Origin: Nitrospirales bacterium
GTDB lineage: Bacteria; Nitrospirota; Nitrospiria; Nitrospirales; UBA8639
Direction of reading: 5' to 3'
NCBI GenBank assembly: GCA_965232175.1
Contig: CBDDOW010000006.1
Location: 1,315,764 to 1,379,763, forward strand
DNA length: 64,000 nucleotides
The position numbers were made by a program, and so were the translations under genes. Positions 3,134 to 32,162 of this stretch are shown piece after piece; within the stretch, counting starts at the first letter, position 1; the number at the start of each line of letters is the position of its first letter. Under the pieces are notes generated by a model that ran no database searches, had not been told where the DNA came from, and saw only the letters and a program-made list of their open reading frames with translations.

Positions 3134-3208
3134 TGGTGGGCGATACTGGTATCGAACCAGTGGCCTCTTCCGTGTGAGGGAAGCGCTCTCCCACTGAGCT
3201 AATCGCCC
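3134..3208 (-). tRNA. tRNA-Val (anticodon CAC), CCA encoded
   Basis: Reverse complement is GGGCGATTAGCTCAGTGGGAGAGCGCTTCCCTCACACGGAAGAGGCCACTGGTTCGATACCAGTATCGCCCACCA. It folds as a cloverleaf: 7-bp acceptor stem, anticodon loop CTCACAC, T-loop TTCGATA. Confidence 0.9.
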
Positions 3209-5266: not shown

Positions 5267-6736
5267 ATGCGAACACTGGAAACCCTGAACTTCGACAACA
5301 CGTATGCCCGGCTGCCCGAGGTCTTCTTTGAACGGGTGATGCCCACGGGCTTTGCCCCCTCGCATCTGGTCGGGTTCAATCCTTCGGCCGCGGCGTTGAT
5401 CGACCTGAACCCGGATGAAGCCAAGCGCCCGGAGTTCCATGAGGCCATGGGCGGCAACCTGCTGCTGCCGGGGAGCGAGCCCCTTGCCCAGCTCTATGCG
5501 GGGCATCAGTTCGGGCACTACGTGTCGCCGCTCGGGGACGGGCGCGCGATTCTGTTGGGCGAAGTGCGCAACTCCCGCGGCGAGAAGTGGGACCTGCATC
5601 TGAAGGGGGCCGGGATGACCCGCTTTTCCCGGGACGGCGACGGCCGGGCGGTGCTTCGTTCGACGATCCGGGAATACCTGTGTGGCGAGGCCATGCACGG
5701 ATTGGGCATCCCGACGACCCGCTCCCTGTGTCTGATCGGCAGCGAGGAAGCCGTGCTTCGGGACAGCGTGGAGACCGGCGCGATGCTCGTGCGCCTGGCC
5801 CCGAGCCACGTCCGGTTCGGGACGTTTGAAATCTTTTTTTATCGCCGTCAGTACGAGCATCTCAAGACCCTGGCGGATTACGTGCTGGCCGGGCATTTCC
5901 CCCATCTCGCCGGGCAGCCGGATGCTTACGCGCACCTGCTGCGCGAGGTGGCCGAACGGACGGGCCGGCTGATTGCCCGATGGCAGGCCGTGGGCTGGGC
6001 GCACGGGGTCATGAATACCGACAACATGTCGATCCTCGGGCTGACCCTCGATTATGGGCCGTATGGGTTCATGGATGATTTCAACCCCGGGTTTATTCCC
6101 AATCATTCCGACCGGTACGGCCGGTACTCGTTTCAGAACCAGCCCGATATCGGGTATTGGAACGTGCGCGCGATTGCCCGGGCCCTTTCCCCCCTGGTGG
6201 GAGAAGCCGACGTCCTTGAAGCCCCCGAACGCTATGAAACCACTATGCAACGAACCTATGCGGATCTGATGCAGGCCAAGTTGGGGCTGCAAGACGTCCG
6301 CGAAGGCGACGACAAACTCCGGCGCGACGTGCTCGCGCTCATGCACAGCAACGGCGTGGACTACACGAATTTCTTTCGGGCGCTCGGGTCCTTCAATCAG
6401 GACGACCCCGCGGCGAACGAACCTCTGCGGGACCGGTTCCCCGACCGGGACGGATTCGACTGGTGGGCGGACCGGTATTGCGCGCGACTCAAGGCCGAGC
6501 GCAGCGCGGACGCCGAACGCAAGGCGCGCATGGACGCCTGCAATCCCAAATACGTGTTGAGAAATTATCTGGCGCACGTGGCGATTGACCGGGCGATCCA
6601 ACACCGGGATTACTCCGAGATCGATCGCCTGCGGGAACTGCTGTGCCGCCCGTTCGACGACCAACCCGAGATGAACGAGTATGCCGCTCCGCCGCCGGAT
6701 TGGGGCAAGCGGATCGTGGTGAGTTGCGCCTCGTAG
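5267..6736 (+). CDS. selO: protein adenylyltransferase SelO (YdiU family)
   Basis: LNFDNTYARLPEVFF...YAGHQFGHYVSPLGDGRAILLGEV...WDLHLKGAGMTRFSRDGDGRAVLRSTIREYLCGEAMHGLGIPTTRSL...GVMNTDNMSILGLTLDYGPYGFMD. Confidence 0.9.
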   Translation: MRTLETLNFDNTYARLPEVFFERVMPTGFAPSHLVGFNPSAAALIDLNPDEAKRPEFHEAMGGNLLLPGSEPLAQLYAGHQFGHYVSPLGDGRAILLGEVRNSRGEKWDLHLKGAGMTRFSRDGDGRAVLRSTIREYLCGEAMHGLGIPTTRSLCLIGSEEAVLRDSVETGAMLVRLAPSHVRFGTFEIFFYRRQYEHLKTLADYVLAGHFPHLAGQPDAYAHLLREVAERTGRLIARWQAVGWAHGVMNTDNMSILGLTLDYGPYGFMDDFNPGFIPNHSDRYGRYSFQNQPDIGYWNVRAIARALSPLVGEADVLEAPERYETTMQRTYADLMQAKLGLQDVREGDDKLRRDVLALMHSNGVDYTNFFRALGSFNQDDPAANEPLRDRFPDRDGFDWWADRYCARLKAERSADAERKARMDACNPKYVLRNYLAHVAIDRAIQHRDYSEIDRLRELLCRPFDDQPEMNEYAAPPPDWGKRIVVSCAS

Positions 6737-6826
6737 CCGCGGAACCCACGGCGACGTCTATCCCCGGTAGTGTTCACAAAAGAAAAATTGGTATCCTTGA
6801 GCAGCCCGGGAGGTCTGTGCATCACC

Positions 6827-9775: not shown

Positions 9776-12013
9776 GTGACCGGCAACGTTGCGTCTGCGC
9801 CGCAGGGCGTGCGGCATGTGACCGCGGCCGACAAGGGGCTGGTGACCGTTCCGATGCTGGCGCCGCACCTCCGGTTCGACGTCGTGAACTCGGACCGGGT
9901 GCTGTTGGTGGCGGAGGGTGTTGCCGTTGAACTGAATGGGCGGTGCTTTGGGAGCCTGCTGCCGTTGCTCGATGGCAGTCGCACGCGGCGGCAGGTGCTT
10001 GCCGAGCTTGAGAACGGGCATTCGCCGGTTGAGGTGCAGACGGCGTTGGTCCGGTTGGCTTCTTCCGGCTTCGTGGTGTCGGCGGAGTTCAATATGGCGC
10101 CGGAGCTGGCGGCGTTCTGGAGCGCGCTCGGCGCCTCTCCGTCTCGGGCGCAGGAATGCCTTGGCGCGACCCCGGTCGAGGTCCGCGGGGACGATGGCGC
10201 GCTTGCGACGTATCTTGCCGGTCTCGGCGCAGTCGTCGGCGCGGACGCGCCGGGGCTTCGCCTCGTTGTCACCGACGACTATCTGTCGCAACGGCACGAG
10301 GCGTTTCATGCGGCCGGCGGGAACGGCCGGCCATGGTTGCTGGTCAAGCCGACGGACGCGCGAGCCCTGTTTGGCCCGGTCTTCGGTCGGGACGCCGCGT
10401 GCTGGCGCTGTTTTTCACGGCGCCTGTCCGCCACGAGTCAACTGGAGTCCTTCCTGCGCGGGAAATCCGCCCGGCCCGGCTCGTCGCCGCTCGCGGCGGC
10501 GGCCTACGCCCTGGCGGCGGTGGAAATCGCCAAATGGATCGTCTTCGGAGAGGAGGCGCCGCTCCATGATCGCGCGATGTCCGTTGATGCCGCCACCGGA
10601 ACCGGCTTTCACCATGCGCCGCGCTGGCCGCAATGTCCCGACTGCGGCGTGAACGCGGACCCTGCGCCTGTGCCGCCGCAGTTGGGCGCGAGCGCGAATA
10701 CGCTGCGCAACAGCGGCGGGACGAGATCGATTCACCCCGAGGAGACGCTGAGACGTCTTCGCCATCTGGTCGATCCGGTGACCGGTATCGTCACGGACCT
10801 CCGGCGGATCGGGGACCCGTCCGATCCGTGGTTCTTTGTCTATCTGGCCAGCTTTGCCCCGACCGTCCTGGCTTCGAGCTATGCGGAGTTACGCTTCGGG
10901 ATTGTCCGCGGGTCCAGCGCCGGCAAGGGCAGCACGCCCGCCCAGGCGGAAGCCAGCGCGCTCTGCGAGGCGATCGAACGGTATTCGGGTATCCTCCAGG
11001 GCGGGGAGGTCGTGCTGCGGCGCAGGATGGATGAATTCCCCGATGGCGCGGCGTTGCCGCCCAATGCAATCGAACGGTTCAGCGACGTCCAGTTTGAACA
11101 GCCGCCCGACGTGGCGCGTCTCCGGTCAAGGCCGGTGCCGTTCGACGCCTCGCAGGCGCTCGACTGGACGCCGGTCTGGTCATTGACCGCGGAGGCCTGG
11201 CGGTACATCCCCACCCGGCTGCTCTACTATGCCTCGCCGGTGGAGGGGGAAGCCAACCAGTTCCTCGCCAATTCCAATGGCTGCGCATCCGGCAACACGT
11301 TCGAGGAGGCGATTCTCCAGGGCTTTTTCGAGCTTGTCGAGCGCGACGCGTTTGCCTGCTGGTGGTACAACCAGATCCGGGTACCGGCGGTGGACCTGGC
11401 GAGCTTCGACAACCAGTATCTGGCCGAAGCCCCGGCGCGCTACGAACGGGCCGGCCGGGAGATGTGGATGCTCGACGTCACCCACGATCTCGGCATTCCG
11501 GTGTTCGTCGCGTTGTCCCGCTGCGACTCGGGCGGCGAGGATCGCATCCTCTACGGGGTCGGGTGCCATTTCGACCCGCTTGTGGCCGCGTCGCGCGCGG
11601 TCTGCGAACTCAATCAGATCCATCTGGCGGGGACGCTCCCGCAGAAACAGGACAGCGCTCGCGCCGACGAATGGCTGCGCACGGCGAGGATAGCCGACAA
11701 ACCCTATCTTGCGCCGGACCCTGCCACGTCGCTCCGCAAGGCGCCGCCTTCCCGCGCGCCCGGCACGGGCGACCACCGCGACGATATCGCGCTCTGCCGC
11801 CGGATCGTGGAGGATGCGGGCATGGAATTCCTGGTGCTCGACCAGACCCGGGCTGACATTGGTCTGCCGGTCGCGCGGGTGATTGTTCCGGGACTCAGGC
11901 ATTTCTGGCCGAGGTTCGGATCCGGCCGGCTCTACGACGTCCCCGTTGCCATGGGCTGGCGCGCTGCGCCGCTGGCCGAAGCCGAATTCAACCCCGATGA
12001 GCCGGTGTTCTGA
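9776..12013 (+). CDS. fused TOMM-type cyclodehydratase (E1-like leader-binding domain + YcaO domain)
   Basis: 745 aa. The YcaO region is SSAGKGSTPAQAEASALCEAIERYSG...ANSNGCASGNTFEEAILQGFFELVERDAF. The size and architecture resemble PatD/TruD-type heterocyclases. The start could be 9776 or 9854. Confidence 0.8.
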   Translation: MTGNVASAPQGVRHVTAADKGLVTVPMLAPHLRFDVVNSDRVLLVAEGVAVELNGRCFGSLLPLLDGSRTRRQVLAELENGHSPVEVQTALVRLASSGFVVSAEFNMAPELAAFWSALGASPSRAQECLGATPVEVRGDDGALATYLAGLGAVVGADAPGLRLVVTDDYLSQRHEAFHAAGGNGRPWLLVKPTDARALFGPVFGRDAACWRCFSRRLSATSQLESFLRGKSARPGSSPLAAAAYALAAVEIAKWIVFGEEAPLHDRAMSVDAATGTGFHHAPRWPQCPDCGVNADPAPVPPQLGASANTLRNSGGTRSIHPEETLRRLRHLVDPVTGIVTDLRRIGDPSDPWFFVYLASFAPTVLASSYAELRFGIVRGSSAGKGSTPAQAEASALCEAIERYSGILQGGEVVLRRRMDEFPDGAALPPNAIERFSDVQFEQPPDVARLRSRPVPFDASQALDWTPVWSLTAEAWRYIPTRLLYYASPVEGEANQFLANSNGCASGNTFEEAILQGFFELVERDAFACWWYNQIRVPAVDLASFDNQYLAEAPARYERAGREMWMLDVTHDLGIPVFVALSRCDSGGEDRILYGVGCHFDPLVAASRAVCELNQIHLAGTLPQKQDSARADEWLRTARIADKPYLAPDPATSLRKAPPSRAPGTGDHRDDIALCRRIVEDAGMEFLVLDQTRADIGLPVARVIVPGLRHFWPRFGSGRLYDVPVAMGWRAAPLAEAEFNPDEPVF

Positions 12014-22131: not shown

Positions 22132-23177
22132 AGCGCGTCTTTCGACATGCCGTCGTCCTTTTGATGATGGTGTCCCTGCTGCCGGGATGCACGCAGCGGA
22201 GCGATCGCGTGGTGGCGGTGGTGGTGCATCCCGTCAAGCCGAAGCTGATCTACGTGGCCACCGAAGAAGCCGTGTACAAGACCCGTGACGGCGGACTGGC
22301 CTGGAAGCGGCTTTCCGAAGGGTTGAGCCGCGTTCGGGTGATGAATCTGACGATTGATCCGCAGCTTCCGGCCAATGTGTTTGCCGGCACGCTTGCGGAC
22401 GGGGTGTACCAGAGTCCGGACGGGGGGCGGCGGTGGCTCCCGCGTAATGCCGGCATTCAAAAAGGAACGATCTCGGCCAACGTGAATCAACTGGTCTTCG
22501 ATCCGGCCGACTCGCAGATCCTGTACGCGGCGACGACCGTGGGGGTGTTCTGGACGAAGGACGCCGGCCGGTCCTGGGCCGAGCGCATGCGAGGCATGAA
22601 CGAGATCAATTTTATCGTGGCGTTGGCCGTGGACCCGATCCGCCCCAATATCCTCTACGCGGGGACAAGCGGGGGAATCTATCGCAGTGTTGACGGCGCG
22701 GACCATTGGACCAAGACCAATAACGGGCTCGTGCCCGATGACGCCAAACTGGCATCCATGGCCCTGGGCGTGAATCGGTTGCTGATCGATCCCGCTGATC
22801 CGGACGTGGTCTACGCGGGCACCACGCAAGGGGTGTTCAAAACGCTCAACAGAGGCGAGACGTGGGTGAGACTGGCGGCTGATCTCGGAGAACTCTACGT
22901 GAGCAGTCTCGCGCTGGAACCGGGAAACGGGCGGCATCTCTACATGGGGACCAGCCGGGGCATCTTTCAAAGCCGGGACGGCGGGCACACGTGGAACGCC
23001 ACCAATGACGGGTTGGCCAACCTGAATATTCGAGCCATCGCCATGGACCCGAGCGATTCACGGGTGCTGTACGCGGGCACGAACGGCAGCGGCCTCTTTC
23101 GCAGTCGGGACGGCGGAGCGTCCTGGACCCACATCCCGCTGGTGCCAAAGGCATCGGCTGATGGAGGCCTGCCCTGA
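22128..23177 (+). CDS. BNR/Asp-box repeat beta-propeller lipoprotein (Ycf48-like)
   Basis: Lipobox LLPGC. It has repeated S-x-D-x-G-x-x-W boxes (TRDGGLAW, SPDGGRRW, TKDAGRSW, SVDGADHW, SRDGGHTW, SRDGGASW). Confidence 0.75.
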   Translation: MKRVFRHAVVLLMMVSLLPGCTQRSDRVVAVVVHPVKPKLIYVATEEAVYKTRDGGLAWKRLSEGLSRVRVMNLTIDPQLPANVFAGTLADGVYQSPDGGRRWLPRNAGIQKGTISANVNQLVFDPADSQILYAATTVGVFWTKDAGRSWAERMRGMNEINFIVALAVDPIRPNILYAGTSGGIYRSVDGADHWTKTNNGLVPDDAKLASMALGVNRLLIDPADPDVVYAGTTQGVFKTLNRGETWVRLAADLGELYVSSLALEPGNGRHLYMGTSRGIFQSRDGGHTWNATNDGLANLNIRAIAMDPSDSRVLYAGTNGSGLFRSRDGGASWTHIPLVPKASADGGLP

Positions 23178-23248
23178 ATCTGTTACCGGCAGTAGAGGAT
23201 GGCCCCTGTGCCGTCCTGCTTCGATGGGCAACGACCAATTCCACGGTG

Positions 23249-23364
23249 TGCTACCAATTGGAAACGTGCTGGAGCATTCTGCATCGTTCAGAAAATAAAT
23301 TACTCTCTATTTTCAATAGGTTGCGAAGATATTGCAACAACGCTCGTGATGGCGCGAAAATTGC
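23249..23364 (+). promoter_or_regulatory. sigma-54 promoter region, copy 1 (UAS-like palindrome, IHF-like site, -24/-12)
   Basis: TGGCGCGAAAATTGC at 23350-23364 fits TGGCAC-N5-TTGC. ttcaataggttg (23312-23323) is IHF-like. tgctaccaattggaaac (23249-23265) is also present upstream of nxrA. Confidence 0.6.
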
Positions 23365-23489
23365 TATAGAAATAGAGAAAACCAGCCGGCATTGATTCGG
23401 GTGGATACATGAGGCAGTCGCGTGGCAGAGAAGTGGCTTCTGCCGTAAATCGCGTCCATATTCTACCCGCCGGCAGCATGCTGTCGGCT

Positions 23490-23524
23490 CAAGGGCCGTC
23501 CTTCGGGGTGGCCCTTGCTTTTTT
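23490..23524 (+). terminator. rho-independent terminator
   Basis: caagggccgtcc ttcg gggtggcccttg forms a 12-bp stem including 2 G:U pairs, followed by cttttttt. Confidence 0.7.
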
Positions 23525-23535
23525 GGAAACGGTGC

Positions 23536-24312
23536 ATGCGAACCCGCGTCTATGTCGATGGCTTCAATCTCTACTACGGAGCCCTCAAAGGCACATCGTT
23601 TAAGTGGCTCAATCTCGTCGCTCTTTCCTATCGGGTGCTACCGTTCGGACATACCATCGAAAAGTTGAAATACTTTACAGCCAAGGTTTCCGGAGCATCG
23701 GATCCCTATGCACCGGCTAGGCAGCAAATTTATCTCAATGCGCTTAGGACGTTGCCCGAGGTGGAGATTTGTTTCGGTAGCTTCCTTGCCAAGACAGTCT
23801 GGCGACCACTCGTCAATCTGCCGATTGCCGAAAGACGGATCGATGCACCGGTGCCCGTGACCCTGCCGGCTGGAACCTTTGGCGTTTCTAGTCCGGATCA
23901 ACAGACCCAGACATTGCCCGTGGGAAGCTACGCGTCGCGGAATAGGATAGTGAACAAGCAGCACAAGACCACCAGGCCTTCGCCCGACGCGGTGATTGCG
24001 GAAGTTCATACCATGGAGGAAAAGGGTTCAGATGTGAGCCTCGCCGTGCATCTCCTGAATGATGCTTGGAAAGACCTTTTCGATGTCGCCGTGGTTGTCT
24101 CGAACGACACCGATCTCGTTACCCCTATTCGTATGGTGACAATGGAAAGGGGAAAGGTGGTATATGTCGTTTGCCCGGGGCGTTGGTCGGTGGCACCGAA
24201 GCTGCAGAATGTCGCCAGTCACATCCGGCACATACGGCGGTCTATGTTGCGGGACGCGCAGTTTCCCCATCGTGTGCCGGGCACGAATATAGCAAAACCA
24301 GCATCTTGGTAA
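23536..24312 (+). CDS. NYN (LabA-like, PIN-related) domain protein
   Basis: MRTRVYVDGFNLYYGAL...EEKGSDVSLAVHLLNDAW...DVAVVVSNDTDLVTPIRMV. Confidence 0.7.
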   Translation: MRTRVYVDGFNLYYGALKGTSFKWLNLVALSYRVLPFGHTIEKLKYFTAKVSGASDPYAPARQQIYLNALRTLPEVEICFGSFLAKTVWRPLVNLPIAERRIDAPVPVTLPAGTFGVSSPDQQTQTLPVGSYASRNRIVNKQHKTTRPSPDAVIAEVHTMEEKGSDVSLAVHLLNDAWKDLFDVAVVVSNDTDLVTPIRMVTMERGKVVYVVCPGRWSVAPKLQNVASHIRHIRRSMLRDAQFPHRVPGTNIAKPASW

Positions 24313-24390
24313 CGACGGAGCTATGAAATGCCTATGCGCATCTGGACCGTAATATGAGTCATAGAGGGAAACCATCTACACCGTCGCAGT

Positions 24391-24751
24391 CCTGAATCTG
24401 TTACCGACAGGGGGACTTATATACCTGGAAGCGCAAGCCGTGTGAAGTTTCGGTAACATCCCGCCCTCGGCATCACCACTATACACTATAGCCACTTCCA
24501 TCCGCACTATTTACTCCGCTGATTCACCCGCGCTACACTTCGGCTATTCCGCTCTACTAAGGCTGCCCCTTGTCGGGTCGCCTGCTCAATACAAGAGCCT
24601 TGCACCAGTTGAGGTGGGTCGCTCTCACCTCGACGGGTGCCGTTGTTCACAGGTAAATACGCAGGATCTCCAAGTCGCCTTGGTAGGGTAGAACCGGCCC
24701 GACCTTTGTTTGGTCGGGATTCCGATTCACCGCTCATTAAGGAGGCAACAC
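24391..24751 (+). ncRNA. candidate structured RNA leader, copy A (inverted partner at 26363-26725)
   Basis: A ~360-nt element lies directly 5' of the CDS at 24752. It shares conserved blocks with copy B, for example the 21-nt caatacaagagccttgcacca. Helices are supported by compensatory changes. Confidence 0.45.
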
Positions 24752-25432
24752 ATGAAATCCGTGCTGATGTTGTTGGCTCTGAGCCTCATCGGGCTAGGAT
24801 TATTCGGCCTGATTCGTCCAGGGAACCAATGGTGGCGGGCATCCCGACAACGAAGCGCTCTGCTAATCGTGATCGGGGTCTTTATCGTTCCTGTTTCTAC
24901 TTTCTTTGTCGGGTTTGGACAAGGGCTTAATGACGGCGGTCATCGTGTGACCGATGCATTGGATCGGCTGAGTGCCGAAGTGACAGAGCCGCAATCGCTA
25001 CCGCCCATCCCCGACAAAGCGGCGATCGTTGAAGAACTGCGATGCAAAGGCGAGTGCGACGACCCGCTCAAAGACGAGTTGCCGCCCATTCCTGGCACAG
25101 AGGCGGTCAGCACCAGAAATACGGAGGCCATTTTGTCCGCAGATTTGTCAGGCGTGTGGATTGTGGAAAATCCCTCTGATCCGGACTACGCCTACGTATG
25201 GATGTACCCGGACCATCGGTATATTATCCGGGCATCTGGCTGCACGATTACGTCGCAAGGGACGTGGAAGTACTCAGGAATAACGCTGGAATTTACGACA
25301 CAGGACGGAGAGAAAAGCTCATTGACTGTGTCGCAAGTACCACGAACGTGGTCATATAACGACCTGTTGGTGTTTAATGTCCATAAAATAATTTGGAAGT
25401 TTACAGGAAGGGATACTGAATTGCCGTGCTGA
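24752..25432 (+). CDS. hypothetical membrane-anchored protein
   Basis: The RBS aaggagg lies 6 nt upstream. There are two N-terminal TM segments (MKSVLMLLALSLIGLGLFGL, LLIVIGVFIVPVSTFFVGF). I recognise no family. Confidence 0.55.
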   Translation: MKSVLMLLALSLIGLGLFGLIRPGNQWWRASRQRSALLIVIGVFIVPVSTFFVGFGQGLNDGGHRVTDALDRLSAEVTEPQSLPPIPDKAAIVEELRCKGECDDPLKDELPPIPGTEAVSTRNTEAILSADLSGVWIVENPSDPDYAYVWMYPDHRYIIRASGCTITSQGTWKYSGITLEFTTQDGEKSSLTVSQVPRTWSYNDLLVFNVHKIIWKFTGRDTELPC

Positions 25433-25561
25433 CCATCACAGCTAATAGGTCCTGGACAAGAACGGCTTTTCAGACTGTCATTCGTCGGATTCAGAAGGGA
25501 TGTAAACCGTTTTGTTGAGTTCGTCCTCAGACGGCTCGTGATCAAGTGCTTGGATGACGTA

Positions 25562-26362
25562 TCATTTCAGCAATCCATCAATGCTGACGTTGAACATCGC
25601 TTCAAGGAACGCTTTGGTCTTGGGCTGGTTATCCAGGGAGGCACGGACAAGCTGTGTGGTAAAGAGTCCGGCTTTGGGCTTCCATTTGGCTTGGTCCCGT
25701 GTGACGGTCGCAGCCCACTTCACCGGAGCGACGTATTCGCTGTGTATCTGTTTACCATGTAAACGGTAATCGAGCAGCCACTTCCTTTTGATGATCACGT
25801 CGCTGATCGGTTTGGCATGGTCAGTGACTGTTCCAACTCCCACAAATCCGCGTCCTTTGAGATAAGCGGCAACCACATCACCGGGCTTGAATCGAAGTAT
25901 GGCTGCAAGCCACCGGCCACGGTTGCTCGCTGAAATAAAGCCGATGGTTCGGAAGTCGTCCCAATTTCGGCTTGTTGGATCTTCGCCGACGTTGTAGTAA
26001 TAGAGTCCTGGCTCGTAGTCGAAGCCAGGCAAGTCACGGTGAAGCTTATTATGGGGTCTGAATTTCTTGGCATAGTGGCCTGATGCGACGTTGGACAGGC
26101 GGTCTCCGAGCTTCCACAAGAGGGTCTTTTCGACCAGAAAGGCGTCGTATTCGGAGAGGTTGCGGGCAATGACCCGGACTATCGGATTGAGGCCGTCTTT
26201 GCGAATGGCGCGAATGCGGCGGGCTTTGGTGGAATCGGAGACATCAGACAAATGCGAGTCTTTGCGCGCCCCTTTGCCTTTGCCAATATAGAACTCCTCG
26301 AAGTTTCGAGGATCGATATAGACATACACGTAAAAGTCGTTGGAAAGGACTCGTCTAGCCAT
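25562..26362 (-). CDS. GIY-YIG nuclease domain fused to a C-terminal PUA/EVE-like domain (tentative)
   Basis: N-terminus FYVYVYIDPRNFEEFYIGKGKGARKDSH carries the GIY...YIG motifs. The C-terminal NWDDFRTIGFISASNRGRWLAAILRFKPGDVVAAYLKGRGFVGVGTV resembles PUA-like reader domains. Confidence 0.6.
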   Translation of the reverse strand: MARRVLSNDFYVYVYIDPRNFEEFYIGKGKGARKDSHLSDVSDSTKARRIRAIRKDGLNPIVRVIARNLSEYDAFLVEKTLLWKLGDRLSNVASGHYAKKFRPHNKLHRDLPGFDYEPGLYYYNVGEDPTSRNWDDFRTIGFISASNRGRWLAAILRFKPGDVVAAYLKGRGFVGVGTVTDHAKPISDVIIKRKWLLDYRLHGKQIHSEYVAPVKWAATVTRDQAKWKPKAGLFTTQLVRASLDNQPKTKAFLEAMFNVSIDGLLK

Positions 26363-26725
26363 GCAACACCGTGCCCGACCAGACAAGGTTGGGCCGTGTT
26401 CGCTCCACCAAGGGATACTTGGAGGCCCGCTTATTTACCTGTAGTGAAACAGCACTTCCCGATGAAGGAGCGACCCTCATCCGGATGGTGCAAGGCTCTT
26501 GTATTGGGCGGCGACCCGATCAAGATAGCCCCCAGTGGAGCGAACGGGTCGAGTATAGCGTGAGCGGTGAACAGAGTAAATAGTGCGGGTGGGATAGGCT
26601 ATAGTGTGTATATTGGTGGTGCCGAGGACCGGAATCGAACCGAGTCGCTTATTTGAACGTTACCAAAACTTCACATTTGCTTGCGCCTCTAGGTATATAA
26701 TTCCCCCGACAGGTAACAAGTTAGG
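26363..26725 (-). ncRNA. candidate structured RNA leader, copy B
   Basis: Inverted copy of 24391-24751, directly 5' of the GIY-YIG gene. It contains an extra ~29-nt tRNA 3'-half-like insert (26617-26648). Confidence 0.45.
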
Positions 26726-27073
26726 CGGTGGTTCCTGTGCCATCCTGTTTCGACAGCATGCGACCCGTTTCCCTTCTTTTGGCTGCATTGGCTCACCGGC
26801 CTCTGAAAACTCTCCTTTGTTGTCTTCCCAAATTGGTATTATGTCAAATTACAGGGGCTTTTGGGTAACGGTGAATAGGACAAATGGGTCACTATTGATG
26901 CTTGTGTTACGATAACTAAACGTCTCAAAACATCCTTGCCCTGAACGATATTTCTTTGAAGATCACAACCTATTGTTTTTATTGATATAAAATTGAAAAT
27001 CTGAAAAATGTCACAAGTGGCCTGCGTCATGCATGGGCTTTTTTATCCCGTTGGGTTCATCCCGGGACTGCCA

Positions 27074-27187
27074 TGCTACCAATTGGAAACACGAGCGATG
27101 ACCAGGCAGGGTCTTGAAAATATTTTCCCTTTAATTTCAATATGTTGCAAAAACTGTTTGAAACGTTCATGTTGGCTCGAAAATTGC
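27074..27187 (+). promoter_or_regulatory. sigma-54 promoter region of nxrAB, copy 2 (UAS-like palindrome, IHF-like site, -24/-12)
   Basis: TGGCTCGAAAATTGC at 27173-27187 fits TGGCAC-N5-TTGC. ttcaatatgttg (27136-27147) is IHF-like. tgctaccaattggaaac lies at 27074-27090. Confidence 0.65.
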
Positions 27188-27363
27188 TTAAAAAATGGGG
27201 AGGTTACAGGAAACCAGCCGGTATTCAAGGCGGATGATGAACAGCATGATGAAACAGGAGTCAGGAAAGGAGGTGGTAAGCGTTCCGTTTTCCCCGAGAG
27301 GGGGTTTTTCAATTCATCCATTCCACGTTAGGCCAATCGGCCTTTACACGAGGAGGTTTTGCA

Positions 27364-30300
27364 ATGTTTCTTTCTAGACGTCAATTTTTAAAAGTGACGA
27401 CCGGAACGGTGGCGGCAGTGGCGCTGGCGGACAAAGCCTTGGCCCTGACTGCGCTGCAACCGGTTGTCGAAGTGGGCAATCCGCTGGGCGAGTATCCTGA
27501 TCGCGCCTGGGAGCGGGTGTACCACGATCAGTATCGGTATGATTCGTCGTTTACGTGGGTTTGCTCCCCGAACGACACTCACGCCTGCCGCGTGCGTTCC
27601 TTCGTGCGGAACGGTGTGGTGATGCGGGTCGAGCAAAACTACGACCACCAAACCTACGAAGACCTCTACGGCAATCGCGGGACGTTCGCTCACAATCCGC
27701 GGATGTGCTTGAAGGGGTACACGATGCATCGCCGGGTGTACGGGCCCTATCGGTTGAAAGGCCCCTTGATGCGCCGTGGTTGGAAAGCCTGGATGGATGC
27801 CGGAAGCCCGGAATTCACTCCGGACGTCATGAACAAATACAAATTCACGTCCCGCTATCTGGATGACATGCTGCGGGTGAGCTGGGATACGGCGTTTACG
27901 TACCTGGCCAAAGCCATGGTCATCATCTCGGAGCGGTACAGCGGCGAAGCCGGCGCCCGTCGTTTGCGGGAGCAAGGCTATCCGCCGGAAATGATCGAGA
28001 TGACCAAGGGTTCCGGCGTGCGGTGCATGAAGTTCCGCGCGGGGATGCCCATCCTGGGCGTGATCGGCAAGATGGCCGTCACCCGGATGAACGGTGGCTG
28101 CGGCGCGTTGCTCGACCACTGGATCCGGAAAGTGAAGCCAGCCCAGGCCCAAGGCGGCCGGTACTGGTCGAACTACACCTGGCACGGGGACCAAAACCCG
28201 GCGCATCCGTTCTGGTCCGGGGTGCAAACCTCTGACAACGACCTGAGCGACATGCGGTTCGCAAAGTTGAACACAAGCTGGGGCAAGAACTTCGTCGAAA
28301 ACAAAATGCCGGAAGCGCACTGGAAACTCGAAAGTATCGAGCGCGGGGCGCGGGTGGTCGTGATCACGCCGGAGTACAACCCGACGGCGTATCGGGCCGA
28401 CTACTGGATTCCGGTTCGGCCGGAGACGGACGCGGCGTTGTTCCTGGGCGCCTGTAAGATCATGTTCGACGAGAACATGCATGACCATGATTTCTGCTCG
28501 GCCTATACGGACATGCCGATTCTGGTCCGTACGGACACGCTGCAATATCTTGATCCGCGCGACGTGATCAAGGGCTATTCATTGCCGGACTTCTCCAAGA
28601 CCTATTCGGGGAAAGTGCAAACCCTGAATCCGGCGAAGATTGCGCGTCTCGGCGGTTTCATGGTGTGGGACACCAATAAGAACCAAGCCGTGCCGATTCA
28701 CCGCGAATTGGTGGGATGGCACTACAGGAACAGCGGGATCGAAGCAGCGTTTACCGGGACCTACCGGGTGAAGTTGCTGAACGGCCGGGAAGTTGACGTG
28801 GCACCGATCTTCCAGTTGTATCAGGTCCACTTGCAGGACTATGACCTGGATACGGTCCACCAGATCAACCGGTCCCCGAAGGACCTGATCGTCCGCTGGG
28901 CCAGAGATTCAGGCACCATCAAACCGGCGACGATTCACAACGGGGAAGGCACGAACCACTACTTCCACCAAACCATCATTGCGCGTGGCGCGGCGATGGT
29001 GTTGATTATCGCCGGGAACGTCGGGAAGTTCGGGACCGGGCAACATACCTGGGCCGGGAACTACAAAGCGGGGATCTGGAACAGCACCCCGTGGTCCGGC
29101 GGTGGGTTGGGCACGCACACCGCGGAGAATCCGTTCAAGATCACGACGGATCCGAACGCACACGGTAAGGAAGTGCACGTGCGTGGCTACTACTATGGTG
29201 AAGAGGTGGCTTACTGGAACCATGGGGATACGGCGTTGATCGTGAACACGCCGAAGTATGGGCGCCGGGTGTTTACCGGAAAGACGCACATGCCGACCCC
29301 GACCAAGTTCCGGTGGGTGGCGAACGTGAACGTGTTGAACAACGCCAAACACCACTATGACATGGTCAAGAACGTGGACCCGCACATCGAATGTATCGTC
29401 ACCCAGGATATCGAGATGACCTCGGACGTGAACCATGCCGACGTTGCGATGGGTGTGAATACATGGATGGAGTTCACGTATCCCGAACATACGGCGACGG
29501 TGTCGAATCCGTGGTTCCAGGTGTGGAAAGGGGGCATCCGGCCCTTGTATGACACCAGAAACGACCTGGATACGACCGCCGGCGTGGCCTCCAAATTGAC
29601 CGACATGACGGGCGATGGGCGGTTCCGGGATTACTTCAAGTTCGTCTACGACAACCGGGTGGACGTGTACGTGCAACGGTTGTTGGATGCCAGTTGTACG
29701 GGGTACGGGTACAGCGTTGACACCATGCTCAAGTCCGAGAAGGGCTGGATGGTGCTGTGCCGGACGTATCCACGGCAACCGTTCTGGGAAGAGACGAACG
29801 AATCGAAGCCGCAATGGACGCGGACCGGACGGTATGAAAACTACCGGACGGAGCCGGAAGCCATTGAGTACGGTGAAAACTTCATTTCGCACCGGGAAGG
29901 GACGGAAGCCACTCCATACCTGCCGAACGCGATTATGACGACGAACCCGTACGTACGGCCGGATGACTACGGTATTCCTATCACGGCGCAGCACCATGAC
30001 GACAAGACGGTGCGGAACATTGCGTTGCCGTGGCAGGAAATCAAACGGTACTCCAACCCGCTGTGGGAGAAGGGGTATCAATTCTACTGCGTGACGCCGA
30101 AGACGCGGCATCGTGTACACAGCCAATGGTCAGTGAACGACTGGGTGCAGATGTATGAATCGAACTTCGGTGACGCGTATCGGATGGACAAACGGACACC
30201 GGGTGTGGGTGAGCATCAATTACACATGAACCCACAATCGGCGAAAGACCGGGGCATCAACGACGGTGACTATGTGTACGTTGACGGCAATCCGGTTGAT

Positions 30301-30801
30301 CGGCCGTACCGAGGATGGAAGCCGAGTGACCCGTACTACAAAGTGGCTCGGTTGATGATTCGGGCGAAGTACAACCCGGCGTTCCCGTACCACGTGACCA
30401 TGGCGAAGCACGCGCCGTACGTCGCAACCGCGAAATCCGTGAAGGGCCATGAAACCCGACCGGACGGACGGGCCATCGCAATGGATACGGGGTATCAATC
30501 CAACTTCCGGTATGGGGCGCAACAGTCCTTCACCCGTGACTGGTTGATGCCGATGCACCAAACCGACTCACTGCCGGGCAAACACGCAGTGGGCTGGAAG
30601 TTCAAATTCGGGTATCAGGTGGACAACCATGCGGTCAACACCACTCCGAAAGAATGTCTGATGCGGATCACCAAAGCAGAGGACGGTGGTATCGGCGGCA
30701 GGGGTCCATGGGAACCAGTCCGGACCGGGTTTACGCCTGGGCAGGAAAATGAGTTCATGATCAAGTGGCTCAAAGGCGACCACATTAAGATCAAGGTGTA
30801 A
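27364..30801 (+). CDS. nxrA: nitrite oxidoreductase alpha subunit, periplasmic (Nitrospira) type
   Basis: Tat signal MFLSRRQFLKVTTGTVAAVALADKALA. It is a 1145-aa molybdopterin (DMSO reductase family type II) enzyme, followed directly by nxrB. Confidence 0.9.
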   Translation: MFLSRRQFLKVTTGTVAAVALADKALALTALQPVVEVGNPLGEYPDRAWERVYHDQYRYDSSFTWVCSPNDTHACRVRSFVRNGVVMRVEQNYDHQTYEDLYGNRGTFAHNPRMCLKGYTMHRRVYGPYRLKGPLMRRGWKAWMDAGSPEFTPDVMNKYKFTSRYLDDMLRVSWDTAFTYLAKAMVIISERYSGEAGARRLREQGYPPEMIEMTKGSGVRCMKFRAGMPILGVIGKMAVTRMNGGCGALLDHWIRKVKPAQAQGGRYWSNYTWHGDQNPAHPFWSGVQTSDNDLSDMRFAKLNTSWGKNFVENKMPEAHWKLESIERGARVVVITPEYNPTAYRADYWIPVRPETDAALFLGACKIMFDENMHDHDFCSAYTDMPILVRTDTLQYLDPRDVIKGYSLPDFSKTYSGKVQTLNPAKIARLGGFMVWDTNKNQAVPIHRELVGWHYRNSGIEAAFTGTYRVKLLNGREVDVAPIFQLYQVHLQDYDLDTVHQINRSPKDLIVRWARDSGTIKPATIHNGEGTNHYFHQTIIARGAAMVLIIAGNVGKFGTGQHTWAGNYKAGIWNSTPWSGGGLGTHTAENPFKITTDPNAHGKEVHVRGYYYGEEVAYWNHGDTALIVNTPKYGRRVFTGKTHMPTPTKFRWVANVNVLNNAKHHYDMVKNVDPHIECIVTQDIEMTSDVNHADVAMGVNTWMEFTYPEHTATVSNPWFQVWKGGIRPLYDTRNDLDTTAGVASKLTDMTGDGRFRDYFKFVYDNRVDVYVQRLLDASCTGYGYSVDTMLKSEKGWMVLCRTYPRQPFWEETNESKPQWTRTGRYENYRTEPEAIEYGENFISHREGTEATPYLPNAIMTTNPYVRPDDYGIPITAQHHDDKTVRNIALPWQEIKRYSNPLWEKGYQFYCVTPKTRHRVHSQWSVNDWVQMYESNFGDAYRMDKRTPGVGEHQLHMNPQSAKDRGINDGDYVYVDGNPVDRPYRGWKPSDPYYKVARLMIRAKYNPAFPYHVTMAKHAPYVATAKSVKGHETRPDGRAIAMDTGYQSNFRYGAQQSFTRDWLMPMHQTDSLPGKHAVGWKFKFGYQVDNHAVNTTPKECLMRITKAEDGGIGGRGPWEPVRTGFTPGQENEFMIKWLKGDHIKIKV

Positions 30802-30872
30802 ACATCGAACCAAGATCGAATGTGGAATTTTAGAAATTGAACTGACACACGTTCAAAGAAACGGAGGAAACC

Positions 30873-32162
30873 ATGCCAGAAGTTTATAATTGGCAATTAG
30901 GGCGGAAGATGCTGTATCCCTACGAGGAACGGCATCCAAAGTGGCAATTCGCCTTTGTGTTCAACATCAATCGCTGCTTGGCCTGTCAAACCTGTTCCAT
31001 GGCGGATAAATCCACCTGGCTGTTTTCGAAAGGTCAGGAGTACATGTGGTGGAACAACGTGGAAACGAAGCCGTACGGCGGATATCCACAGTTCTACGAC
31101 GTGAAAATCACGCAGTTGATTGAACAAGTCAACCCAGGCGGACAGGTGTGGAACGTGCGGGTCGGCCGCAAACACCATGCGCCGTATGGGGTGTTCGAAG
31201 GAATGACCATTTTCGATGCCGGGGCGAAAGTCGGCCAGGCGGCGATCGGGTACATTCCGACGGACCAGGAATGGCGGTTTGTCAACATTTATGAAGACAC
31301 GGCCACGTCAATGCGCGCCATTGTGGAAGGCATTGATAAGACCGGGTTTACCAAGGAAGAACCATGGCGGATGACCGGCAGCAGCTTGCCGGAACATGAA
31401 ACCTACTTCTTCTATCTTCAACGCATTTGTAACCATTGCACGTATCCGGGTTGTTTGGCTGCCTGTCCGCGGAAGGCCATCTACAAGAGGCCGGAGGATG
31501 GGATCGTGCTGATCGACCAGAACCGGTGCCGTGGGTACAAGAAGTGCGTGGAGCAATGTCCATACAAAAAGCCCATGTATCGGGGAACGACTCGGGTGAC
31601 CGAGAAGTGCATCGCCTGCTATCCGCGGGTCGAGGGGAAAGATCCTCTCACCGGTGGCGAGCCGATGGAAACCCGGTGTATGGCGGCCTGCGTGGGTAAG
31701 ATTCGCTTGCAGAACCTCGTCAAGGTTGGCGAGGATGGACTGTGGGCGGAAGATCGGTGGAACCCCCTGTATTACACCATCCGGGTGGAACAGGTGGCGT
31801 TGCCGCTGTACCCGCAATGGGGCACGGAGCCGAACGGGTATTACATTCCCCCGCGGCAATCGCCCCGTGGCTACATCCGGCAGATGTTCGGGCCGGGCGT
31901 GGACAATGCGATCGAGAAGTACCTGGTGCCGAGCCGGGAACTGTTGGCCGTCCTCCAGCTCTGGAGAGCGAGCCAGCAGATCGTTTTCCGGTACGACATC
32001 ATTCCCGGACCGAAAGTGTTCGAAACCCAAATTCACGGTCGGAAGTTCGAGATGTACAACGACACCGTGTTAGGGTTCAACAAGTCCGGGAAGGAAGCCG
32101 TGCGGCAGCAGGTGGAAGAGCCGATTTACATTCGGCCAGCCGAACGCGCTACCTGGCTGTAA
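30873..32162 (+). CDS. nxrB: nitrite oxidoreductase beta subunit (4 Fe-S clusters)
   Basis: Cysteine clusters CLACQTC, CNHCTYPGCLAAC, CRGYKKCVEQC, CIACYPR. The N-terminus MPEVYNWQLGRKMLYPYEERHPKW is typical of Nitrospira NxrB. Confidence 0.9.
   Translation: MPEVYNWQLGRKMLYPYEERHPKWQFAFVFNINRCLACQTCSMADKSTWLFSKGQEYMWWNNVETKPYGGYPQFYDVKITQLIEQVNPGGQVWNVRVGRKHHAPYGVFEGMTIFDAGAKVGQAAIGYIPTDQEWRFVNIYEDTATSMRAIVEGIDKTGFTKEEPWRMTGSSLPEHETYFFYLQRICNHCTYPGCLAACPRKAIYKRPEDGIVLIDQNRCRGYKKCVEQCPYKKPMYRGTTRVTEKCIACYPRVEGKDPLTGGEPMETRCMAACVGKIRLQNLVKVGEDGLWAEDRWNPLYYTIRVEQVALPLYPQWGTEPNGYYIPPRQSPRGYIRQMFGPGVDNAIEKYLVPSRELLAVLQLWRASQQIVFRYDIIPGPKVFETQIHGRKFEMYNDTVLGFNKSGKEAVRQQVEEPIYIRPAERATWL

Follow-up and report, generated by a model that had tools for sequence, protein, structure and literature searches.

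The 64-kb window analysed in this study (64,000 nucleotides (nt) of a Nitrospirales bacterium, contig CBDDOW010000006.1, positions 1,315,764 to 1,379,763) contains a 2294-bp element (24412-26705 of the window) whose ends lie in two inverted, diverged copies of one sequence of ~350 nt. Copy A extends over 24391-24751 on the plus strand and copy B over 26363-26725 on the minus strand. Alignment with blastn gave 70% identity over 356 nt (E 3.7e-31), the copies were further aligned with MAFFT, and an inverted-repeat search returned several blocks that are 83-96% complementary (I1-I4 and I6). A first-pass annotation of the sequence had proposed the two copies at these coordinates, together with a 21-nt identity between them, and both proposals were borne out: the window holds the 21-mer CAATACAAGAGCCTTGCACCA in exactly two places, 24587-24607(+) and 26486-26506(-), where chance would produce none. 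No third copy of the repeat or of its leader was detected in the window by blastn or by covariance-model search.

Each copy forms the 5' leader of a different gene, as had been annotated, with open reading frames (ORFs) starting at 24752(+) and 26362(-). Copy A ends with the ribosome-binding site and the ATG (24752) of a protein of 226 aa, encoded by cargo gene 1 (24752-25432, plus strand); the Shine-Dalgarno sequence AAGGAGG (24739-24745, plus strand) stands 6 nt before the ATG. This protein possesses an N-terminal hydrophobic segment and is membrane-bound or secreted, and it has no match in Pfam, NCBIfam or PADLOC. Copy B runs up to the ATG (26362, minus strand) of cargo gene 2 (25562-26362, minus strand), which encodes a LEM-3-like GIY-YIG nuclease fusion of 266 aa (Pfam PF22945, E 1.9e-8). 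More than 2000 homologues of the GIY-YIG protein were found, and PADLOC models match its N-terminus (PD-T4-3) and its C-terminus (PDC-S11).

The repeat is a composite, with a transposon end in its outer part and a promoter and a leader RNA in its inner part. It had been annotated as a candidate structured RNA of ~350 nt and not as decaying repeats. The structured RNA stands for the inner part, and the length does not: because the promoter lies inside the repeat, the predicted transcribed element would comprise only ~180-210 nt after the putative promoter, and the first ~150 nt precede it. These outer ~150 nt hold the terminal inverted repeat and target-site duplication of a transposon. The same annotation had foreseen a reclassification in case the copies proved to be transposon terminal inverted repeats, and this applies to the outer part. 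The copies are inverted because they sit at the two transposon ends.

Transposon ends, sister elements and target site

The outer ~27 nt of each copy are terminal inverted repeats starting with GGGAMTTATATACC. The left one (GGGACTTATATACCTGGAAGCGCAAGC, 24412-24438, plus strand) was obtained as inverted repeat I1 and with an nhmmer model of the ends (E 5e-12), and the right one (GGGAATTATATACCTAGAGGCGCAAGC, 26679-26705, minus strand) by the inverted-repeat search and the same model. Both abut a target-site duplication of 8 bp, CCGACAGG, which is identical on the same strand at 24404-24411 and 26706-26713. No transposase is encoded within 24412-26705, where no substantial ORFs exist besides the two cargo genes and neither of these matches transposase models. 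Members of the IS1595 family generally have 8-bp target duplications on either side (PMC8101967). The window element has the terminal inverted repeats and the 8-bp duplication of this family and lacks its transposase; having none of its own, it would be at most a non-autonomous derivative of IS1595-family type. For the ISNwi1 group ISfinder gives the ends 'ggnnatTAT', which GGGAATTAT would fit.

Inverted pairs of such ends were found with the nhmmer model in six other loci (L005, L010, L032, L033, L034 and L035). The 8-bp repeats flanking them are CCGACAGG in L033 (~2353-2360 and ~6530-6537), CCAAGAGG in L005 (4493-4500 and 10232-10239), CCGAAAGG in L035 (~6796-6803 and ~11400-11407), CTTACAAA in L032 and CTTGCGAG in L034; no duplication was found in L010, where the inverted ends are present. 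An IS1595-family transposase is located inside the ends of L005, L032, L033, L034 and L035. The L005 enzyme scores above the NCBIfam cutoff (NF033547; also PF12762) and the others are its homologues, and family fragments above the NF033547 cutoff adjoin leader modules in L012 and L015. L033 occupies the same site as the window element with the same duplication, has a leader close to copy B and retains the transposase, and thus probably shows what the window element lost. Resemblance to the IS1595 family therefore comprises the transposase of the sister elements (NF033547, PF12762), inverted ends starting with GG, 8-bp duplications and extra genes other than the transposase. Unlike the family, the window copy has no transposase and carries the ~350-bp right-end block at both ends, and several insertions lie in the loops of short palindromes (the site between the BNR-repeat gene and nxrA, and L032).

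Read inward, the right-end block consists of the inverted repeat, a spacer of ~100 nt, a sigma-70-type promoter and a leader of ~180 nt up to the cargo gene. In L034, L035 and the window, promoter and leader are placed alike, 65-130 nt inside the inverted repeat and reading inward, so that the block of repeat, spacer, promoter and leader (~350 bp) is a conserved terminal module. The long inverted repeat of the window results from the presence of this module at both ends. The first ~40 nt of the repeat correspond to the inverted pair that bounds a 5.7-kb island in a syntenic metagenome-assembled genome (MAG) locus, and the sister elements have only these ~40-nt ends in common, not the rest of the repeat.

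The spacer of copy B contains a 24-nt insert relative to copy A (MAFFT) that resembles the 3' half of a tRNA (GGTTCGATTCCGGTCCTCGGCACCACCA). The tRNA-like sequence (26620-26650, minus strand) shows a T-loop GGTTCGATTCC, an acceptor strand and CCA, and lies between the inverted repeat and the promoter; only CCCTCGGCATCACCA is kept at this position in copy A. It may derive from a tRNA gene of which a remnant was captured; being upstream of the promoter, it is outside the RNA. A transfer-messenger RNA (permuted or standard) or a tRNA-like RNA was considered and rejected: ARAGORN and Rfam gave nothing, there is no matching 5' acceptor strand, and the insert precedes the promoter and is absent from copy A and from the sister ends.

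The insertion site of the window element is a short palindrome between the BNR-repeat gene and nxrA. An uninterrupted paralogue of the target site (23173-23230, plus strand), directly after the stop of the BNR-repeat gene, was used as internal empty-site comparison; it reads CCTGAATCTGTTA-CCGGCAG-..., continues with sequence like the right flank (cf. 26726-26757), and is identical to 24391-24410 at 19/20 positions. A reversed core between GTTAC and GGGGA had suggested site-specific recombination sites, or a duplication of 4-6 bp, in the palindrome. This was dropped, as a repeat start at GGGA gives an 8-bp duplication that holds in six elements. The boundary also disposes of a helix of 8 bp (GTTACCGA/TCGGTAAC, 24400-24407 with 24450-24457) that had been annotated as closing a 5' domain of the RNA. 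Its letters are present, but its 5' arm is made of 4 nt of chromosomal flank and the first 4 nt of the target-site duplication, while the partner arm lies inside the element. The pairing precedes the promoter, has no counterpart at the ends of L005, L033 and L034, and is not an RNA helix.

Several further observations concern the site. The palindrome between the BNR-repeat gene and nxrA is occupied in four related genomes (window, L005, L033 and L035), and three different 8-bp duplications, CCGACAGG, CCAAGAGG and CCGAAAGG, were found there. Three duplications at one site imply repeated insertion at a putative hot spot beside nxrA. The target in L032 is likewise a hairpin loop, with the stem CCCCTCC/GGAGGGG. 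A secreted protein of 167-168 aa without Pfam match is cargo in three of the elements at the nxrA-adjacent site (L005 6864-7367, L033 4479-4982 and L035 9594-10100; 77-85% identity). In the window, the target site and a part of the nxrA-upstream region (23248-23366, like L005 10598-10716) are duplicated within 23173-23400, right after the BNR-repeat gene, and are followed by a gene for an NYN-domain protein; this indicates that the intergenic region probably underwent segmental duplication before or around the insertion. The sequence GGTAAC, ~45 nt inside the inverted repeat (24452-24457 and 26659-26664), mirrors GTTACC of the chromosomal flank, so that the end module is bracketed by arms of the target palindrome. 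Such bracketing, present only at the window ends and the right end of L035, could be a relic of nested insertion. Directly downstream of the island, 27364-32162 encodes nxrA-like (1145 aa, molybdopterin) and nxrB-like proteins with 87% DNA identity to a Nitrospira MAG locus, by which the source is recognised as a Nitrospira-like nitrite oxidiser.

Structure and covariation of the leader RNA

The closest homologue of the GIY-YIG protein (76%) is encoded in the MAG Nitrospira sp. SB0672_bin_25 (L005-L008). Its locus is syntenic to the window, in the order ABC transporter, LON-substrate-binding protein, AttH, BNR-repeat gene, variable island and nxrA, and the 3' half of the repeat recurs there before two different genes. 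A search pattern was derived from the blocks common to the copies (GGTAAATAMGYRGG, a gap of 24-36 nt, and GGCCCRRCC). It returned 18 metagenome loci, including ~7 distinct true homologues and 3 chance matches; the source assemblies MKWU and LXNJ are Mediterranean sponge metagenomes (PMC5099237, PMC5649159). A first covariance model, made from one sequence and the proposed structure, recovered 12 copies, and a second model (R2), built from these 12, recovered five more, in loci that were picked solely by homology to the L005 transposase and not used in model building. A total of 17 copies fit one covariance model with scores of 67-183 bits. The first-pass annotation, which compared two copies, had called for such homologues, and the covariation holds among them.

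In both window copies the leader is preceded by a sigma-70-like promoter, ~100 nt inward of the terminal inverted repeat. That of copy A (24510-24539, plus strand) reads TTTACT, 18 nt spacer, TACACT; that of copy B (26552-26580, minus strand) reads TTTACT, 17 nt spacer, TATACT and was found independently by a consensus scan and a positional scan. All 12 copies examined possess a promoter-like site with a TTGACN-like -35 box, a spacer of 17-19 nt and a TANNNT -10 box, at 8-13 nt from the end of the -10 box to the first base pair of the leader. An ORF lies downstream on the same strand in each of the 12, with a different gene after each copy. A sigma-54 promoter was looked for in the conserved blocks on reading and is absent from them.

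The fold begins with helix P1 of 14-17 bp, whose 5' strand stands at the extreme 5' end of the predicted transcript. The junction closed by P1 contains two elements, the small hairpin P1b (NACCC, loop YUUGUC, GGGUN) and a long arm of P1a and P2. P1a pairs CCUGY with RCAGG and is followed by an internal loop, in which the blocks AAUACAAGAGCC and GGUAAAUAC are almost invariant. P2 forms a long hairpin in two parts, its apical loop being GGUAGCU or GGUCGCU, and a pyrimidine-rich linker connects its arm to the 3' strand of P1. The conserved hairpin P3 comes after P1 (GGCCCGACC, loop, GGUCGG), and the ribosome-binding site lies 11-45 nt beyond P3 in most copies. The junction and the arm's internal loop contain about 40 unpaired nucleotides that are nearly invariant; the conserved unpaired blocks of copy A are UUGUCGGGUC, AAUACAAGAGCC and GGUAAAUACGCAGG.

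The leader of copy A occupies 24545-24726 on the plus strand (R2, 136 bits, E 9e-27). According to alignment A6, its helices are P1 (24547-24563 with 24677-24693), P1b (24565-24568 with 24575-24578), P1a (24581-24586 with 24660-24665), P2 (24602-24609 with 24633-24640, and 24611-24618 with 24624-24631) and P3 (24698-24704 with 24712-24718), and the minimum-energy fold of this copy has the same helices. The leader of copy B occupies 26366-26551 on the minus strand (R2, 97.4 bits, E 1.3e-18). In the same alignment it forms P1 (26545-26529 with 26414-26398), P1a (26511-26507 with 26431-26426), P2 (26492-26485 with 26458-26451, and 26481-26474 with 26468-26461) and P3 (26392-26388 with 26379-26375), where a G-to-A change in GGCCCAACC causes one mismatch.

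Two helices had been annotated from double substitutions between copies A and B, and both now covary in 17 copies. The long-range helix (24547-24557 with 24683-24693; 26545-26535 with 26408-26398) is part of P1, and the local hairpin (24611-24631; 26481-26461) is the top of P2. Both-side, compensatory changes occur in 30/37 pairs, being distributed as 14/14 in P1, 8/8 in lower P2, 3/4 in upper P2, 3/6 in P1a and 2/5 in P3. In the 17-copy alignment 93.2% of the helix cells are paired (98% in P1), compared with 70.5% in shuffles, 0/500 of which reach the observed values, and 36-42% with slid partners; since the model structure guided the fitting of alignments A5 and A6, these pair counts are somewhat inflated, which has to be set against our interpretation. 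The duplex test of P1 is alignment-free and without such bias. The two strands of one copy pair with a mean energy of -29.7 kcal/mol, those of different copies with -16.5 +/- 4.0 kcal/mol, and the own partner is the best one in every row. Moreover, the fold with P1 and P3 is the minimum-energy fold, or within 3 kcal/mol of it, in 10/12 copies. We consider it very probable that the leader is a real structured RNA.

If the repeats were long transposon ends in decay, their helices would have arisen by chance. The outer ~27 nt are indeed transposon ends, the window copies are 70% identical and copy B scores lower than the other copies. Chance pairing is hardly credible, however, in view of the compensatory changes, the shuffles, the ~40% reached by slid pairing and the 13 kcal/mol that separate own from cross duplexes; besides, copies of the leader are found away from the ends, and the sister elements are alike only in their ~40-nt ends.

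The pairing takes place on the sense strand, as deduced from an excess of G-U wobbles over A-C mismatches in the helices (35 against 9 cells) and a covariance score of at most 17 bits on the reverse strand. A strand-specific structure with tolerated G-T wobbles, near the ends of mobile elements, would also be compatible with a fold that acts as single-stranded DNA in transposition or recombination, as do the ends of IS200/IS605 elements or integron attC sites. These elements, however, have a DDE transposase, neither an HUH/Y1 transposase nor an integron integrase was found in the window region or the sister elements, and the 8-bp duplications are typical of double-strand DDE integration. Each copy examined has a promoter before it and an ORF after it, and some copies are internal, 0.5-1.6 kb inside the elements, and not restricted to boundaries. 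Such a role of the DNA strand is thus very improbable.

Several elements of the fold have alternative partners. GUCGGGUCN has two possible partners, the upstream GACCC, with which it forms P1b, and the downstream N'GGCCCGAC; GGCCCGAC alternatively forms P3, and the pyrimidine-rich linker can pair with the 3' strand of P1. Together these pairings make two internally consistent global folds. The second is less stable by 12-30 kcal/mol in all copies except copy A, where the gap is ~5 kcal/mol, and its long helix has one informative covarying position (G:C in 4 copies, U:A in 5 and G.A in 2). Pairing of GUCGGGUCN with N'GGCCCGAC as the main fold, favoured by RNAalifold on the MAFFT alignment, was rejected as energetically worse than P1+P3. 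This helix is possibly a pseudoknot or a transient alternative.

The annotation had not recognised the element as a known riboswitch, T-box, group I or II intron, retron ncRNA or omega RNA, and this agrees with Rfam 15 (4227 models): at gathering thresholds the whole window yields only a tRNA-Val (3137-3208), and 24200-26900 with E up to 10 only two spurious matches of 12-14 bits. ARAGORN reports no tRNA or transfer-messenger RNA in 24200-26900. In the literature on the conserved blocks and on Nitrospira RNA motifs, we found no earlier description of the leader.

The distribution of the leader does not follow one gene. The covariance model finds none upstream of the GIY-YIG homologues in L009, L029, L030 and L031, which excludes a GIY-YIG-specific leader. 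Since it was not found before these homologues in other taxa, the leader tracks the lineage and the transposon, not one gene family. A 19-mer scan of species-representative genomes gave 4 matches, all by chance. A phage or plasmid origin was discarded, as neither blastn against phage and plasmid collections nor pattern scans of viral contigs gave a match. A distant leader-like variant was noticed in L011 (5393-5590), L024 (6127-6324), L026 (1665-1829) and L027, with the P2 loop GGTAGCTCC and with GGTAAATAAGCGGG and GGCCCGACC, at an R2 score of only E 2-3. In four contigs it stands exactly at the contig end, which suggests a multi-copy repeat that breaks assemblies.

Cargo genes and the function of the leader

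The genes following the leaders encode lipoproteins with weak TbpB-like C-termini, a subtilase lipoprotein, an outer-membrane beta-barrel protein, GT8 and GT2 glycosyltransferases, TraT, small membrane or secreted proteins of no assigned family and the GIY-YIG protein. Leader-headed cargo thus consists mostly of envelope proteins or candidate defence proteins (anti-phage nuclease). In the window, G+C is reduced across 23250-27250, and this segment, adjacent to nxrA, resembles a small island of defence type; the protein encoded by the NYN-domain gene (23515-24312, plus strand) matches the PADLOC candidate HEC-09 (E 5e-43).

Our interpretation, with a probability of about 0.62, is that an IS1595-type transposon carries a promoter and a cis-acting structured leader before its cargo genes. 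The structure covaries, and it is positioned between a predicted promoter and a start codon on the coding strand, as is characteristic of structured cis-regulatory leaders. A non-autonomous transposon of a sponge-associated Nitrospira-like bacterium bears the promoter-leader module at both ends. Transcription would start at the module promoter and read inward, so that the leader heads the cargo mRNA. The conserved core of the leader would most probably bind a small molecule or a protein, and binding would set the expression of whichever cargo gene comes next. That the leader acts in cis on cargo expression is probable, and a small molecule as the effector is a tentative suggestion.

A number of observations weigh against this interpretation. 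Both the promoter and the 5' end were predicted from consensus sequences. In the predicted folds the Shine-Dalgarno region shows no clear sequestration, with a probability of 0.3-0.5 of being unpaired, and sequestration of the ribosome-binding site in minimum-energy folds gave no consistent signal. A U-rich tract after P3 is present in few copies only, and in four copies the ORF begins 140-300 nt downstream. An extended P3 competing with P1 as expression platform was rejected as unsupported across copies (own -5.3 versus cross -4.4). The downstream genes have no single common pathway that points to a ligand. Copy B, with its P3 mismatches and lower score, may be decaying. Moreover, all occurrences of the family come from a small group of sponge-associated metagenomes and MAGs, and many of its copies are recently related.

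The location of the modules also bears on whether the RNA might serve the transposon itself, either by controlling inward transcription that is convergent with, and if unterminated antisense to, the transposase gene, or as a processed non-coding RNA that modulates transposition. The inward promoter and leader 65-130 nt inside the repeat in L034, L035 and the window would suit such a role, as would the gene driven from the L034 leader, which is convergent with the transposase, and the presence of at least one leader in 4/4 elements found by transposase homology alone. The same survey, however, revealed leaders 0.5-1.6 kb from the ends or as second internal copies (L005, L010, L032 and L035), each internal one with its own promoter and ORF, and no inverted repeat is detectable in the available flanks of L014, L016, L019, L021 and L023. 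DDE transposases of the IS1595 family are not known to use RNA. We regard a role in transposition as improbable. Non-coding RNAs of transposon ends, namely the bridge RNA of IS110, the omega RNA or reRNA of IS200/IS605 and RNA-OUT of IS10, are likewise structured, located just inside the end and conserved with the element. They pair with or guide the recombinase or nuclease of their element, or act as antisense RNA on its mRNA, whereas the leader described here heads cargo ORFs, occurs internally as well, belongs to elements with a DDE transposase and has no segment that matches the varying target sites.

The nature of the downstream genes recalls regulons of the RfaH type, with GT8, GT2, TraT, outer-membrane beta-barrels and surface lipoproteins. 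The leader might accordingly be a recruitment site for a dedicated protein, such as a NusG/RfaH-like antiterminator, a translational repressor or an RNA chaperone, that coordinates acquired envelope genes. One leader stands before unrelated, horizontally acquired genes, and the P2 apical loop (GGUAGCU/GGUCGCU) keeps its sequence though unpaired, and both points favour such a site. In the loci examined, though, no gene for a candidate regulator accompanies the leader, all copies lack the ops element GGCGGTAGnnTG on direct reading, and from sequence alone protein binding cannot be told from ligand binding. We therefore hold a protein partner of this kind to be rather unlikely. JUMPStart/ops, the common leader sequence of RfaH operons before acquired lipopolysaccharide, surface and transfer genes, is a parallel. 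It is a short DNA motif, in contrast to a leader of ~180 nt with five covarying helices; GGCGGTAGnnTG is missing from 17/17 aligned copies, and only GGTAGC in some P2 loops is common to both.

Within the preferred interpretation of a cis-acting leader on a transposon, its form could be a new class of riboswitch, which would sense a small molecule or second messenger and move, as a cassette of promoter and sensor, on the end of an IS1595-type transposon. We put this forward tentatively, as possible but doubtful. Riboswitches and other cis-acting leaders, for example the classes for cyclic di-GMP that head surface-protein genes, are similar in their promoter-proximal place on the sense strand before different genes, and in a multi-helix junction closed by a long P1, with conserved unpaired junction nucleotides and covarying stems. 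Unlike them, the leader matches none of the 4227 Rfam models, is transposon-borne and is restricted to one lineage, and neither a terminator nor a platform sequestering the ribosome-binding site could be demonstrated for it.

IS1595-type elements with passenger genes are already known. What is new is a leader-RNA family as a portable promoter-leader module on a transposon; no description of a promoter and structured-leader module before cargo was found for the IS1595 family in the literature. If confirmed, it would be an RNA family with unusually clear covariation, absent from Rfam, from poorly studied sponge-associated nitrite oxidisers. The recurrent occupation of the hairpin adjacent to nxrA makes this site, next to the key enzyme of nitrite oxidation, a hot spot for insertion. 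A transposon that bears its own regulatory RNA for passengers would be a means of spreading a regulon horizontally. Should the riboswitch proposal be true, any cargo acquired would come under one signal, by means of a mobile plug-in module and not a chromosomal regulon. The leader would also offer a tractable experimental handle on what the envelope and defence genes of the symbiont respond to.

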